A stretch of DNA of 64,000 nt from a bacterium (GCA_965200245.1 CBDATS010000004.1:192001-256000), one strand, 5' to 3'. Positions 34,151-56,128 are shown, counted from the stretch's first letter. Translations and numbers: made by a program. The notes: generated by a model from the sequence alone, not told the origin.

Positions 34151-34226
34151 TGGCAGGCCAGGAGGGACTCGAACCCCCAACCGCCGGATTTGGAGTCCGG
34201 TGCTCTGCCAATTGAGCCACTGGCCT
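34151..34226 (-). tRNA. tRNA-Trp (CCA)
   Basis: Cloverleaf, anticodon arm CCGGA-CT-CCA-AA-TCCGG, GTTCGA, encoded CCA end. Confidence 0.97.
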
Positions 34227-34253
34227 GTGAAAACCTTTTTCTGCTTCCTGAGA

Positions 34254-35468
<1,215 letters not shown>

Positions 35469-35666
35469 AAAAATACCTTCAGGGAGAGAGGAACCATTTC
35501 CTCCCTTCTACCTTACCATTCCCGAAAAACGCACTTTATACCCACTCGGCTGAAATCTTGTCCATCGCCACAGGGAAAATCGGCAAAACCCAGAGAGCGC
35601 AAGGCGTTTCATACAAATTACAAGATAATGCACAAACCTCAAATTATCAATGAATCTCACCCGCCC

Positions 35667-35742
35667 TGGAGCCCACGACCGGACTTGAACCGGTGACCTC
35701 TTCCTTACCAAGGAAGTGCTCTGCCGGCTGAGCTACGTGGGC
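35667..35742 (-). tRNA. tRNA-Thr (GGT)
   Basis: Anticodon arm CTTCC-TT-GGT-AA-GGAAG, CCA end. Confidence 0.97.
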
Positions 35743-35919
35743 CGACTACACCAAGGGCTCGCGAACGTCATTTATTTCAGCCGAAGCAACCTCATCGAAT
35801 GATGAAACCGGAGAGGCGTTCCGGGCGAATAATACAACTTATTCCGGCCAGGGCAACCCCAAAAGCCGAAAGTCACATGAATCAAACAAATACCAAGGCG
35901 GAAAATCCCCGACTCGTCC

Positions 35920-35995
35920 TGGAGCGGGAAACGGGGCTCGAACCCGCGACCCTCAGCTTGGAAGGCTGATGCTCTACCATCTGAGCTATTCCCGC
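35920..35995 (-). tRNA. tRNA-Gly (TCC)
   Basis: GCGGGAA acceptor, TCAGC-CT-TCC-AA-GCTGA, CCA end. Confidence 0.97.
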
Positions 35996-36041
35996 CTCTA
36001 AATCCAAAGCGCACGTCTCGCTCATCACAATATTCATCTTA

Positions 36042-36126
36042 TGGTGGGGAGGGGAGGATTCGAACCTCCGAAGGCTGAGCCGTCAGATTTACAGTCTGAT
36101 CCCTTTGGCCACTCGGGAACCTCCCC
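36042..36126 (-). tRNA. tRNA-Tyr (GTA)
   Basis: TCAGA-CT-GTA-AA-TCTGA, long variable arm, CCA end. Confidence 0.97.
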
Positions 36127-36288
36127 TGGAAACCAAGCCCAACAAAACAAACATAAATGCTATCAGAAAATTTCGCGGAAACCATCTGTTCCCCGAAACC
36201 GCCGCATCCATCCAAACCCGTAAAGAGATAACGCAGGCGACTTTCAGCCGGATTATCTGCTGCGGGGTCCTAAAGGCGCGTCCCGCCG

Positions 36289-36364
36289 TGGAGCTGGCGA
36301 GAGGACTCGAACCTCCGACCTGCTGATTACAAATCAGCTGCTCTACCAGCTGAGCTACGCCAGC
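36289..36364 (-). tRNA. tRNA-Thr (TGT)
   Basis: GCTGA-TT-TGT-AA-TCAGC, CCA end. Confidence 0.97.
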
Positions 36365-54042: not shown

Positions 54043-55041
54043 CTACCCTCGCAGGGCCGCTACGTCCAGGACCTCGCCCGTCACAGCACTCTGCACGACT
54101 GCCTCGAGCACGGCAACGACCTCGAGTCCTTCGGGTCCGCCCGTCTCGGGAGTGGCCTCGCCGCGGATGCACTTGCAGAACTCACCCATCTCGTCCGCCA
54201 GGGCGTCTCCGCCCACGACCTCAACCTCGGTGCGCGCCTCCTCGCCCACTTTGGCTACGTAGAGCTTTCCGCCCTCTTCTTCGCTGTAAGCGCGCATTTT
54301 CGTGCCGAAGGCTGCCGTGTCACAGATCTTTGGAACGACGAAAGAGGAGCCGATGTGGCCTAGCGGGCCACTCTCGTACTCGATGATGATGTTCGTCGCA
54401 TCGTCCAGGTTCGTCTTGCCGAGCAACTTCTTGCTGAAGGCAGCCACACGCTTCGCGGGACCTGCCAAGTACTGAAGGTTGTCGATCATGTGGACACCCA
54501 GGCCCGTCATGGAACCCGCAGGGCATTCGGTGGGGTCATTGCGCCAGCCCGACCTGGCTTCGAAACCCATGGGCAGCGAAAGGTTGGCCTCAAGTTGATG
54601 CACTACTCCGAGTTCACCCGCATCGATCATCCGCTTGATCTCGCGATTCGCGCCGAAGCGGCGGCGGTGGTGTCCAACCTGCAGGGTGACGTTCGCGGCG
54701 GAAGTTGCCTCGACCGCCTTTTTGGCCTCATCGACGGTGAGGGTGAGCGGCTTCTCGACAAACACGTGCTTGCCTGCCGACGCTGCCGAAGAAATCATGT
54801 CCAAATGCGTGGAGTGAGGCGTCGCGATGATGACGCCTTCGACCTCCGGGTCGTTCCATACTTCATCCAGACTACCTGCCATCCGGCAGCCGTGTTTCTC
54901 TGAAAACGCCTTGCGAGCCTCCTCGCTGCGCGCGAAACCCGTCACCACCTCGCCCGAACCACTGCGGTTCAGGGCGTCCACCAGAACGCCGCCCCACCAG
55001 CCAAGACCGATAGAGGCAAGTCGCACCTTTTCATCAGCCAT
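54043..55041 (-). CDS. Gfo/Idh/MocA-family oxidoreductase
   Basis: IGLGWWG, ATPHSTH, GKHVFVEKPL, GVHMID. Confidence 0.93.
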   Translation of the reverse strand: MADEKVRLASIGLGWWGGVLVDALNRSGSGEVVTGFARSEEARKAFSEKHGCRMAGSLDEVWNDPEVEGVIIATPHSTHLDMISSAASAGKHVFVEKPLTLTVDEAKKAVEATSAANVTLQVGHHRRRFGANREIKRMIDAGELGVVHQLEANLSLPMGFEARSGWRNDPTECPAGSMTGLGVHMIDNLQYLAGPAKRVAAFSKKLLGKTNLDDATNIIIEYESGPLGHIGSSFVVPKICDTAAFGTKMRAYSEEEGGKLYVAKVGEEARTEVEVVGGDALADEMGEFCKCIRGEATPETGGPEGLEVVAVLEAVVQSAVTGEVLDVAALRG

Positions 55042-55183
55042 GATTCGACTCCTCATTTACCGAATGGATGAATTCGCGGCGTTCCATGGAACATCGCGTC
55101 GAACAGACACCGCATGATTTTGTGCAGGCCGCACCATAACCCAACAAGGTGTACTTGAAAACCACGCCCGAGAAAAACAGGTC

Positions 55184-55215
55184 AAAAAAAACCTCCTCCC
55201 GTCTCCGGGAGGAGG
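55184..55215 (-). terminator. Strong intrinsic terminator
   Basis: Minus strand CCTCCTCCCG-GAGA-CGGGAGGAGG-TTTTTTTT (GNRA loop). Confidence 0.88.
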
Positions 55216-55336
55216 CTCTCGCAAGGGGTAGTTGCGAGATGTATGATTGCGTGGCGGAGGAGTGCCGACCCGATCAGCTACCCCTCTCGCCAGCCTGCCG
55301 GGGCGTGCCGCCTATGAACGCCCCGACCGGCTTGCT
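55184..55336 (-). ncRNA. Candidate sigma54-dependent structured sRNA (~150 nt)
   Basis: Bounded by a -24/-12 promoter and a terminator; several GC-rich stems; no AUG in the predicted transcript. Confidence 0.65.
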
Positions 55337-55346
55337 CTTATTATCT

Positions 55347-55362
55347 TGCAAGCACCGTACCA
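55347..55362 (-). promoter_or_regulatory. Sigma54 (-24/-12) promoter
   Basis: TGGTACGGTGCTTGCA versus consensus TGGCACGNNNNTTGCW; exact GG-N10-GC spacing. Confidence 0.8.
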
Positions 55363-55390
55363 TTTTTTATTTTTCGGAAAAGTCTTTATA

Positions 55391-55403
55391 TATCAATGAA
55401 TTA
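55391..55403 (+). promoter_or_regulatory. IHF-binding site
   Basis: TATCAATGAATTA is a perfect match to WATCAANNNNTTR, in an AT-rich stretch upstream of the sigma54 promoter. Confidence 0.7.
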
Positions 55404-55513
55404 CAATTCTGCGCAGGCCCGCCGAATTGCCACTTTGTCACAAGTCACCGGACAACGACGACAAAACGTCATGGGAAAAAATCAATTTCAATTCCGTGGG
55501 GGAATTCTTCTCT

Positions 55514-56128
55514 TCATTCAGAAGCAGCTGATTTTTCGGGAAAGGCGTCCAGCGCCTTGGAAACGGCCGCCTTCATCTCGTCTCCGTGTGCAAGCGCCGT
55601 CGTCGCGCGGACTTGCGATTCCCACAAGGTATCCTCAGAGTTCAGGTCGAGAAAGTGTATCTCGACCCGCGCGGCGCAAACTTCTACGTCCTCGCAGGAG
55701 CGCTCGCCCGCCGCTATCGCTACCGCCTGTGCGCCGGTATCCCTGAGCGCCGAAAGATGGGCCTCAGCGATTTTTCCTTCTTTGTTCAGCAAATCGTCCG
55801 TTTTCTTTTTTTCGAGTTCCCTGGGCCAGCGGACGACCTGATAGCCCTTTGCAATCAAGACGTCCCGAATCAGGAAGGCGCCCTCAATCAGTTCGATCCT
55901 CCTGCCCTTCGGCGCTTCTATACCCGCCTTCTTGTAGACGTCGCGGAAAAGCCCCGTCCAATCGCTCGGATATTGGAACGGGGCGACAGTGAGGCGCGCA
56001 AGCGCTTGTATCTTCACAGGTCGTGCGATGACCTGCCTCACGGACAACTCATAGGCGCACCCCGCCATAAGGAGAAGCGACAGCACCGCAGGCAAAAGCG
56101 GAAGCCTCGACGCGAAGCTCTTCATCAT
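55514..56128 (-). CDS. Hypothetical lipoprotein
   Basis: MMKSFASR followed by a hydrophobic stretch and lipobox LMAGC; ATGA overlap with the upstream gene. Confidence 0.75.
   Translation of the reverse strand: MMKSFASRLPLLPAVLSLLLMAGCAYELSVRQVIARPVKIQALARLTVAPFQYPSDWTGLFRDVYKKAGIEAPKGRRIELIEGAFLIRDVLIAKGYQVVRWPRELEKKKTDDLLNKEGKIAEAHLSALRDTGAQAVAIAAGERSCEDVEVCAARVEIHFLDLNSEDTLWESQVRATTALAHGDEMKAAVSKALDAFPEKSAASE

Follow-up and report, generated by a model that had tools for sequence, protein, structure and literature searches.

A probable stand-alone sigma-54-dependent small RNA gene conserved in a family of Nitrospinota

Signalling systems in which a REC-type bacterial enhancer-binding protein (bEBP) and sigma-54 drive a small RNA (sRNA) as the main output include Qrr (LuxO and sigma-54), CrcZ/CrcY (CbrB, sigma-54 and integration host factor, IHF) and NrsZ (NtrC and sigma-54); RNAs can also titrate proteins, as GlmY does by binding RapZ and CsrB by binding CsrA. 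In Enterobacteriaceae, the GlmY/GlmZ system, as described in the excerpted text of PMC4152352, comprises the GlrK/GlrR two-component system, sigma-54, several activator sites and IHF; it includes two homologous sRNAs, one of which can lack sigma-54 control, and the two-component system and the sRNAs co-occur. Desulfovibrio vulgaris Hildenborough has four sigma-54-dependent non-coding RNAs, the targets of DVU0653, DVU0679 (= Dv_sRNA2), DVU1419 and DVU2359, which were found by comparative genomics and DAP-chip and which, in the portions of PMC3333781 and PMC4641369 consulted, are of unknown function and are the main or only target of their regulators. The subject of the present study is a predicted sRNA gene on the minus strand of a bacterial DNA stretch of 64,000 nucleotides (GCA_965200245.1, CBDATS010000004.1:192001-256000; the whole stretch is hereafter the window). 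A lipoprotein gene and a GFO/IDH/MocA oxidoreductase gene (hereafter GFO) are separated there by 457 bp, which hold, in minus-strand reading, two enhancer dyads, an IHF-like site, a sigma-54 promoter and the RNA.

By analogy, the layout of this locus is closest to that of GlmY/GlmZ. Compared with the same excerpts of PMC4152352, the likeness extends to a kinase with a REC-type bEBP (here a candidate pair), a sigma-54 promoter of an sRNA, several upstream sites, IHF (here an IHF-like site), a second homologous RNA without sigma-54 control, the co-occurrence of two-component system and RNA, and an RNA that combines stem-loops with a terminator and a single-stranded stretch. A sigma-70-like match (55369-55396) just upstream of the sigma-54 promoter is also reminiscent of glmY, whose promoters overlap. 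Unlike GlmY/GlmZ, however, the RNA has no sequence or structure match to the Rfam models; the upstream sites have the form TGNCA-N3-TGNCA, whereas the GlrR sites are TGTC-N10-GACA; the candidate two-component system is not beside the RNA, being on another contig in the source genome and 20-50 kb away in many relatives; RapZ was not found in the source genome, and the bEBP is most similar to AtoC, not GlrR. Qrr, CrcZ/CrcY and NrsZ belong to the same control class (a REC-type bEBP, here a candidate, and sigma-54), but no Rfam match connects them with this RNA, the source genome yielded neither Hfq nor CsrA/Crc-type partners, repeated A-rich or GGA motifs are missing from the RNA, and both lineage and fold are different. 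The D. vulgaris RNAs, compared by description only and from the same portions of PMC3333781 and PMC4641369, likewise have bEBP-activated sigma-54 promoters before non-coding RNAs, but they belong to another phylum and lie beside regulator genes in two of the four cases.

The analysis points to a genuine sigma-54-dependent stand-alone non-coding RNA gene with a predicted transcript of about 153 nt, and we put the probability of this reading at roughly 0.75. Direct reading of the minus strand recovered, at the positions given in an initial annotation of the window, the two dyads, the -24/-12 element and the predicted +1 (Table 1); the 10-bp GNRA-capped terminator with its U8 tract was present too, with a GAGA loop and its end at 55184. 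The sigma-54 pattern TGGYAYRNNNNTTGCW matched once in the window against 0.08 matches expected, with at least one match in 8 of 100 shuffles. The dyad pattern by itself is not rare (six matches in the window versus 6.16 expected), and its weight rests on position and conservation; the starts of the two dyads at the locus are separated by 31 bp. A sigma-70 promoter for the RNA was considered and rejected: the sole match of a consensus scan (55396-55369, minus strand; TTGATA-16-AAAAAT, 9/12) overlaps the IHF-like site and has a -10 part that relatives do not conserve. The terminator was missing from the output of a simple scan; its hairpin can be clearly seen in the sequence, the minimum free energy (MFE) fold and the alignment fold alike.

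The arrangement of promoter and structure seen by the initial annotation in one sequence was also found in related genomes; the source genome (G000) itself is 95.8% complete. In a census of 44 distinct copies, each taken with the 170 nt upstream, a strict TGGYAY-N5-TTGC element was located 23-33 nt before the RNA in 37, and the remaining seven comprise five promoter-less forms of a second RNA copy (copy 2, considered below) and two loci, L016 and L084, that share one insertion. At least one dyad of the TGNCA-N3-TGNCA type was present in the 165 nt upstream of 35 of the 37 promoters, and at least two upstream of 23, the genome background of the dyad being 0.17 per kb per strand. With the -24 element (T of TGG) as reference, the proximal dyad is found at -76 to -78 in 28/37 promoters; the distal dyad has the form TGACGA(T/A)TTGTCG and the position -106 to -109 in genus g1, and the form TG(C/A)CACNCTGGCA, also written TGCCAC-N-CTGGCA, and the position -129 to -131 in genera g2 and g7. 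The dyad-promoter architecture is maintained in the most divergent genera. The claim of a perfect IHF consensus stood only in part: TATCAATGAATTA fits WATCAANNNNTTR, which we take to be the IHF consensus, at 55391-55403, but the strict form occurs in only 6 of the 44 distinct copies, and the TTGA(T/A)A core alone is conserved in position (-33/-34 from the -24 element in 23/37 promoters, -28 in six more). The source genome has IHF-alpha-like and IHF-beta-like genes, which score just below the equivalog cut-offs, as tested on partial sequences. In L016 (1285-1583) and L084, loci of the G014 type, the sigma-54 promoter is followed by an approximately 20-nt duplicate of the RNA 5' end and an insert of about 60 nt, and the full RNA begins about 7 nt past a TATAAT box; judging by these motifs, a sigma-70 start may be used there in addition to a 5'-extended sigma-54 transcript.

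A search of Rfam 15 (4227 covariance models) brought up only five tRNAs above the gathering scores in the window, all of them away from the RNA, and no family at the RNA itself, as the initial annotation had supposed. Matches with E values up to 10 in the region 55050-55560 were six in number, mostly on the terminator and all far below the cut-offs (nse_sRNA, anti-hemB, CRISPR-DR25, Vax2os1, ar14, mir-127), and the Rfam 15 models of GlmY/GlmZ, Qrr and CrcZ gave no match. A DNA search of 61 genomes, including the source genome, found the region in all 22 other genomes of the genus, in 31/36 of the family and in none of the 24 genomes outside the family. A covariance model built on the 5' domain (R1), which scores the RNA of the source genome 103 bits, found the RNA in 36/41 other genomes of the family: 22/22 in g1, 4/4 in g9, 5/5 in g2, 2/2 in g8, 1/1 in each of g4, g6 and g7, 0/1 in g3 and 0/4 in g5; the phylum's three other families, represented by nine genomes, yielded no match. 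The RNA is single-copy in the source genome by both the DNA search and the covariance model. The miss in g3 (genome G024) coincides with a contig break about 220 nt upstream of GFO, where the contig end resembles the 3' half of a terminator, so that g5, a genus of small (2.0-2.2 Mb), A+T-rich genomes, is the only real absence in the family.

When species genomes were scanned for the exact core pattern, 65 loci emerged; BLAST identified 26 of these as true homologs, labelled 'uncultured Nitrospinaceae bacterium' (3), 'Nitrospinota bacterium' (4), 'Candidatus Tectomicrobia bacterium' (2) and 'bacterium' metagenome-assembled genome (17); the remaining 39, in unrelated G+C-rich genomes, matched by chance. 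Kinship with the Desulfovibrio sigma-54 RNAs, as a homolog of Dv_sRNA2, was rejected as to lineage, the homologs being Nitrospinota-labelled, and no Desulfovibrio record was among the 65 pattern matches. The upstream lipoprotein (203 aa) belongs to no Pfam or NCBIfam family. Searches of the four g5 genomes, where the RNA, the kinase and the REC-type bEBP are missing as well, did not turn up its gene; the sister-family genome G037, with a lipoprotein homolog (34% identity) and a 58% bEBP homolog, shows neither the RNA nor a sigma-54 element downstream of the lipoprotein gene. The RNA represents a new sRNA family outside every Rfam family tested, though of a known kind.

The 153-nt RNA has an MFE of -89.5 kcal/mol, compared with -58.7 +/- 3.6 kcal/mol in 200 shuffles (z -8.58). 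RNAalifold applied to 35 distinct full-length sequences predicted helices H1 and H2 and the terminator, and 17 of 45 pairs maintain pairing despite changes on both sides. Among 71 model hits (41 distinct), 95.0% of cells pair in the structure of Table 1 versus 37-52% with the partners slid, 12 pairs versus 3-5 are changed on both sides and the covariation score is 0.268 versus 0.03-0.09, values reached by none of 500 shuffles, but these counts were made on a model-fitted alignment and are hence biased towards that structure, which detracts from the preferred reading. Covariation is carried by H1, with both-sided changes in 9 of 16 pairs over the 41 distinct sequences, and the core of the H1 loop, GGCGGCACG, is invariant. 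In H2, 8 of 17 pairs never vary and three have both partners altered, with 95.4% of cells pairing. The alignment fold also shows covariation in the terminator stem, where, for example, 28 sequences have GC and six have CG at pair 173-178. H3 is variable and absent from g2, g6 and g8, and L022 retains the stem by a G-C to A-U change. In the linker, CACG..AUYAU is conserved in the alignment, and CAU occurs within the 3' module of 32/35 distinct homologs; from the linker to the 5' arm of the terminator the RNA is pyrimidine-rich (mean 0.68 versus 0.48 in the 5' domain), while the count of anti-Shine-Dalgarno-like stretches, 35/35, is inflated by the paired terminator arm.

The source genome encodes RpoN (rpoN, 201.6 bits) and only two full bEBPs, both outside the window, in keeping with the proposal that the activator is encoded elsewhere. 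The first, REC-AAA-HTH in domain order (459 aa), adjoins a 741-aa PAS histidine kinase on contig C5; the second is a GAF-AAA-HTH protein (520 aa) on contig C4. Neither member of the first pair reaches its NCBIfam equivalog, the best matches being AtoC for the REC-bEBP (473 bits against a cut-off of 714) and AtoS for the kinase (230 against 646), and the likeness of the pair to AtoSC is one of architecture alone. In the kinase, two transmembrane segments flank an outer domain of about 265 aa with a weak dCache hint, and PAS-HisKA-HATPase follows. Orthologs of the REC-bEBP (67-87% identity) are present in every RNA-bearing genus and also in G024, where the kinase adjoins it; in all four g5 genomes the REC-bEBP is absent (the best match, 46-47%, is the GAF paralog), as is the kinase (26-29%, catalytic core only). 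The GAF bEBP is present throughout the family, g5 included (61-66%), and in three of the four g5 genomes, as in the source genome, a sigma-54 match is found about 5.5 kb downstream of its own gene. By elimination between the two bEBPs and from one co-loss event, in g5, the REC-bEBP with its kinase is probably the activator of the RNA promoter; the related genomes do not count as independent observations here. Ten strict sigma-54 matches were found in the source genome, only two of them in A/T-rich intergenic DNA, namely the RNA promoter and C4:1171966 (minus strand). The latter, TGGCACGCATTTTGCT, has a different upstream palindrome, ATCGTATAATAACGAT, and lies 6 kb from the GAF-bEBP gene; it precedes a leader of about 340 nt without an Rfam match and then RimK-like ATP-grasp and aldehyde-dehydrogenase-family genes (L101/L169).

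For the working of the gene we infer a circuit in which the signal, the acting bEBP, the use of IHF, action in trans and the targets are all proposals. The membrane sensor kinase would perceive an extracytoplasmic signal and phosphorylate the AtoC-like REC-AAA+-HTH response regulator, which would then occupy both TGNCA-N3-TGNCA dyads, whose centres precede the start by about 100 and 130 bp; through an IHF-like bend of the A/T-rich spacer, the regulator would reach sigma-54 RNA polymerase at TGGTAC-N5-TTGC, and transcription would begin near 55336 and end at the U8 terminator (55184). The RNA would act in trans, the CAU linker and the pyrimidine-rich 3' module pairing with ribosome-binding regions of mRNAs, and the invariant 5' domain (H1 loop and H2) would serve as a specific seed or a protein-contact surface. 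To the pairing of the RNA with mRNA ribosome-binding sites we would give slightly less than even odds.

Several findings, given in this and the next three paragraphs, weigh against the preferred reading or against parts of the circuit. The discrete transcript and its 5' and 3' ends are predictions. The assignment of the activator hangs on elimination and on a single loss event, in the streamlined 2.0-2.2 Mb genomes of g5, and in one genome that has the RNA, G034 (91% complete), no ortholog of the REC-bEBP is seen. No dyad was found in the source genome upstream of the kinase operon or at the other intergenic sigma-54 sites, so that there is no second target with which to cross-check the motif; among dyad pairs elsewhere in that genome, the only cluster (C4:1390950) falls inside a gene and was set aside.

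The search for targets was similarly unrewarding. RNAduplex was run with three seeds (H1 loop, linker, H3 loop) against positions -45 to +25 of 3584 crude open reading frames (ORFs), with ten shuffled seeds each; the best duplexes (-24.4, -25.0 and -20.6 kcal/mol, respectively), set beside shuffled-seed minima of -20.8 to -27.1, -17.9 to -22.6 and -16.4 to -21.1, are not informative. A 12-nt perfect complement of the H1 loop at the oppC start (oppB-oppC junction) was rejected, as it also encodes the OppB C-terminus (DPRIRL-stop); it is kept in g1 loci L139-L159 and breaks down in loci of g3, g8 and g9 (-11 to -15 kcal/mol). A 12-nt complement of the linker at mnmG, in repetitive AT-rich DNA some 100 nt ahead of the gene, was judged a chance match. 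The region upstream of mnmG/gidA (C4:1257950-1258090, minus strand) is very A/T-rich, with several TATATA/TATAAT repeats, and by its composition may be origin-like. The best duplex of the linker was discarded as well, since it lies in a gap of about 660 nt with a spurious ORF only, about 450 nt before the next real gene. This gap (C4:123650-124310; L171:851-1508) extends from a 296-aa gene to an MMPL/RND-type transporter gene, holds no credible ORF and, from the sequence, could be a long 5' untranslated region or another non-coding RNA.

Hfq, CsrA and RapZ (RapZ-like_N) were not found in the source genome, so that no known partner protein backs a mechanism in trans; the same result tells against the main alternative to base pairing, in which the RNA is a decoy whose H1 loop and H2 titrate a protein and copy 2 is its partner RNA. 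The conservation of GGCGGCACG and of the never-varying pairs of H2 far beyond the needs of pairing speaks for such a decoy, as do the scans, which produced no convincing mRNA target, and the existence of two homologous RNAs, one sigma-54-driven and one not, a situation also described for GlmY/GlmZ in the excerpts of PMC4152352. The loops, however, lack repeated GGA-type motifs, most genomes, the source genome among them, have a single copy, and base-pairing seeds also typically have invariant loops; on balance, a decoy function is unlikely.

The genomic context leaves room for a role in cis, since GFO follows the RNA in strict synteny in 52 of 56 RNA-holding loci (the other four are one 364-nt locus, one cut right after the RNA and two centred on copy 2) and copy 2 stands before another gene of the cluster. 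Copy 2 occurs in five g1 genomes (G002, G010, G011, G012, G016), 5.5-7.5 kb downstream of the first. In G002, G010 and G012 it starts about 60 nt past the stop of the ARPP-1 gene without promoter or dyads (TTGC is kept at -12, the -24 GG is lost or shifted) and sits 140-240 nt upstream of the SSF symporter gene of the same cluster; its H1 differs from that of copy 1 by several double changes that preserve pairing. The source genome has both the ARPP-1 and the SSF symporter genes, with no RNA copy between them. Perhaps, then, the RNA is a 5' leader or attenuator, the sigma-54 promoter driving the GFO/IDH/MocA-XDH operon through a terminator that is conditional, whether riboswitch-like or by protein-mediated antitermination, and copy 2 acting likewise for the symporter; the H2 arms (GAGGAG/CUCCUC) resemble the terminator arms, and alternative pairings can be drawn. 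Direct reading of the fold and the alignment allows only one such pairing against the terminator, the 6-bp GAGGAG:CUCCUC, and H2 is invariant while the terminators differ between genera (L035 versus L069) with no compensating change, so that no switch helix is supported by covariation. The terminator is strong and perfect (10 bp, U8), and there is no Rfam riboswitch match.

Nor does a co-oriented regulated gene always follow, as it would behind an attenuator. A paralog in G030 (g9), on another contig, has the full sigma-54 promoter and both dyads and comes after a TPP-enzyme gene; about 45 nt past its terminator is the stop of a convergent gene (transmembrane/coiled-coil; G+C at third codon positions, GC3, 0.91), followed by ComEC, and a co-oriented 'ORF' there looks like an antisense artefact. 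This paralog supports a stand-alone RNA. The g5 genomes, for their part, keep the order of membrane-protein gene, GFO and XDH, and run GFO-XDH from their own TGTTATAAT-type, sigma-70-like promoter with neither the RNA nor the lipoprotein gene. Together with the invariant H2, the G030 paralog and the RNA-less g5 operon argue against a pure 5' leader. Between terminator and GFO, moreover, g1 keeps a TTTTCA-N17-TATGGT-like motif (GGTTTTCAAG..GTTGGGTTATGGTGCGG, 55129-55163, minus strand), conserved within that genus and not in other genera, which could be a weak sigma-70 promoter for the GFO-XDH operon. We therefore regard a leader or attenuator as very unlikely.

That the locus encodes a small protein, the RNA structure being incidental, is hardly credible: a 55-codon frame does open from a UUG at 55224, and in some relatives a Shine-Dalgarno-like GAGGAG stands before a UUG (GAUUGGG), but the 153-nt transcript contains no AUG, as the initial annotation had observed, and no GUG, its sole UUG (55224) is CUG in most relatives and the frame from it crosses the terminator, the GAUUGGG/GAUCGGG site varies and thus offers no conserved start, the indels of the H3 region are not multiples of three and the substitutions preserve pairing.

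Table 1. Features of the predicted sRNA locus (positions in the window) and positions of copy 2 in related loci.
Feature	Position	Strand	Sequence and remarks
Distal enhancer dyad (upstream activating sequence, UAS 1)	55471-55459	minus	TGACGTTTTGTCG
Proximal enhancer dyad (UAS 2)	55440-55428	minus	TGACAAAGTGGCA; general form TGNCA-N3-TGNCA
IHF-like site	55391-55403	plus-strand letters	TATCAATGAATTA; in A/T-rich spacer
Sigma-54 -24/-12 promoter	55362-55347	minus	TGGTACGGTGCTTGCA
Predicted +1	55336 (A)	minus	12 nt past the C of the -12 GC
Predicted sRNA	55336-55184	minus	153 nt, G+C-rich; from fold, covariance model and terminator
Helix H1 (RNA nt 5-45)	55292-55332	minus	MFE fold; 13-nt loop UUCAUAGGCGGCA, 3' part of loop invariant
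Helix H2 (RNA nt 46-84)	55253-55291	minus	MFE fold; sequence nearly invariant
Single-stranded linker, candidate base-pairing region	55240-55252	minus	ACGCAAUCAUACA; 13 nt, unpaired in MFE and centroid folds
Helix H3 (RNA nt 98-120)	55217-55239	minus	C-rich loop AACUACCCCUU; fold and alignment
Intrinsic terminator	55184-55216	minus	CCUCCUCCCG-GAGA-CGGGAGGAGG-U8; 10 bp plus G.U closing pair, GAGA loop
Lipoprotein gene	55514-56125	minus	203 aa, lipobox LMAGC; 5' neighbour of RNA gene
GFO/IDH/MocA oxidoreductase gene	54043-55041	minus	3' neighbour of RNA gene
Copy 2, G012	L102:7635-7783		between ARPP-1 (PF20208) gene and SSF symporter
Copy 2, G002	L103:6242-6390		between ARPP-1 (PF20208) gene and SSF symporter
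Copy 2, G010	L104:9168-9316		between ARPP-1 (PF20208) gene and SSF symporter

Apart from the sRNA locus, the window contains five tRNA genes clustered in 2.2 kb (34154-36364, minus strand). Elsewhere in the source genome, a 9.6-kb contig (C12, about 300-700) brings close together inverted repeats of the TTAGTGAGYGCTCACTAA type, three tandem CACGTTGCCCCCGTGGATGC and two sigma-54-like matches, and this repeat region may belong to a mobile or phage-like element.

Taking the stand-alone sigma-54-dependent RNA as the preferred reading, a wider picture can be drawn, which is quite unlikely in its entirety: a single-output signalling module that arose independently of the enterobacterial GlmY/GlmZ circuit, in a lineage with only two bEBPs and with no Hfq, CsrA or RapZ found, and in which the dCache-like/PAS kinase and the REC-bEBP would exist solely for the RNA, the lipoprotein would take part in the same envelope-sensing pathway, the 5' domain would bind a protein and copy 2 would be a base-pairing or decoy partner.

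What is known of Nitrospinota comes mostly from metagenomes, and these bacteria do not lend themselves easily to manipulation; no sRNA or sigma-54 regulon was found described in print for them. The locus would represent a complete and very simple circuit, leading from a sensor kinase through a REC-bEBP and a sigma-54 promoter to one RNA, in a genome with two bEBPs and two clear intergenic sigma-54 promoters; it would also be an independent instance of a design that recurs, the two-component system whose output is an sRNA. Since the usual RNA chaperones were not found in this lineage, the partners of the RNA may be new. The covariance model and the promoter motif can be used for annotation of the family and for the search for the transcript in metatranscriptomes.

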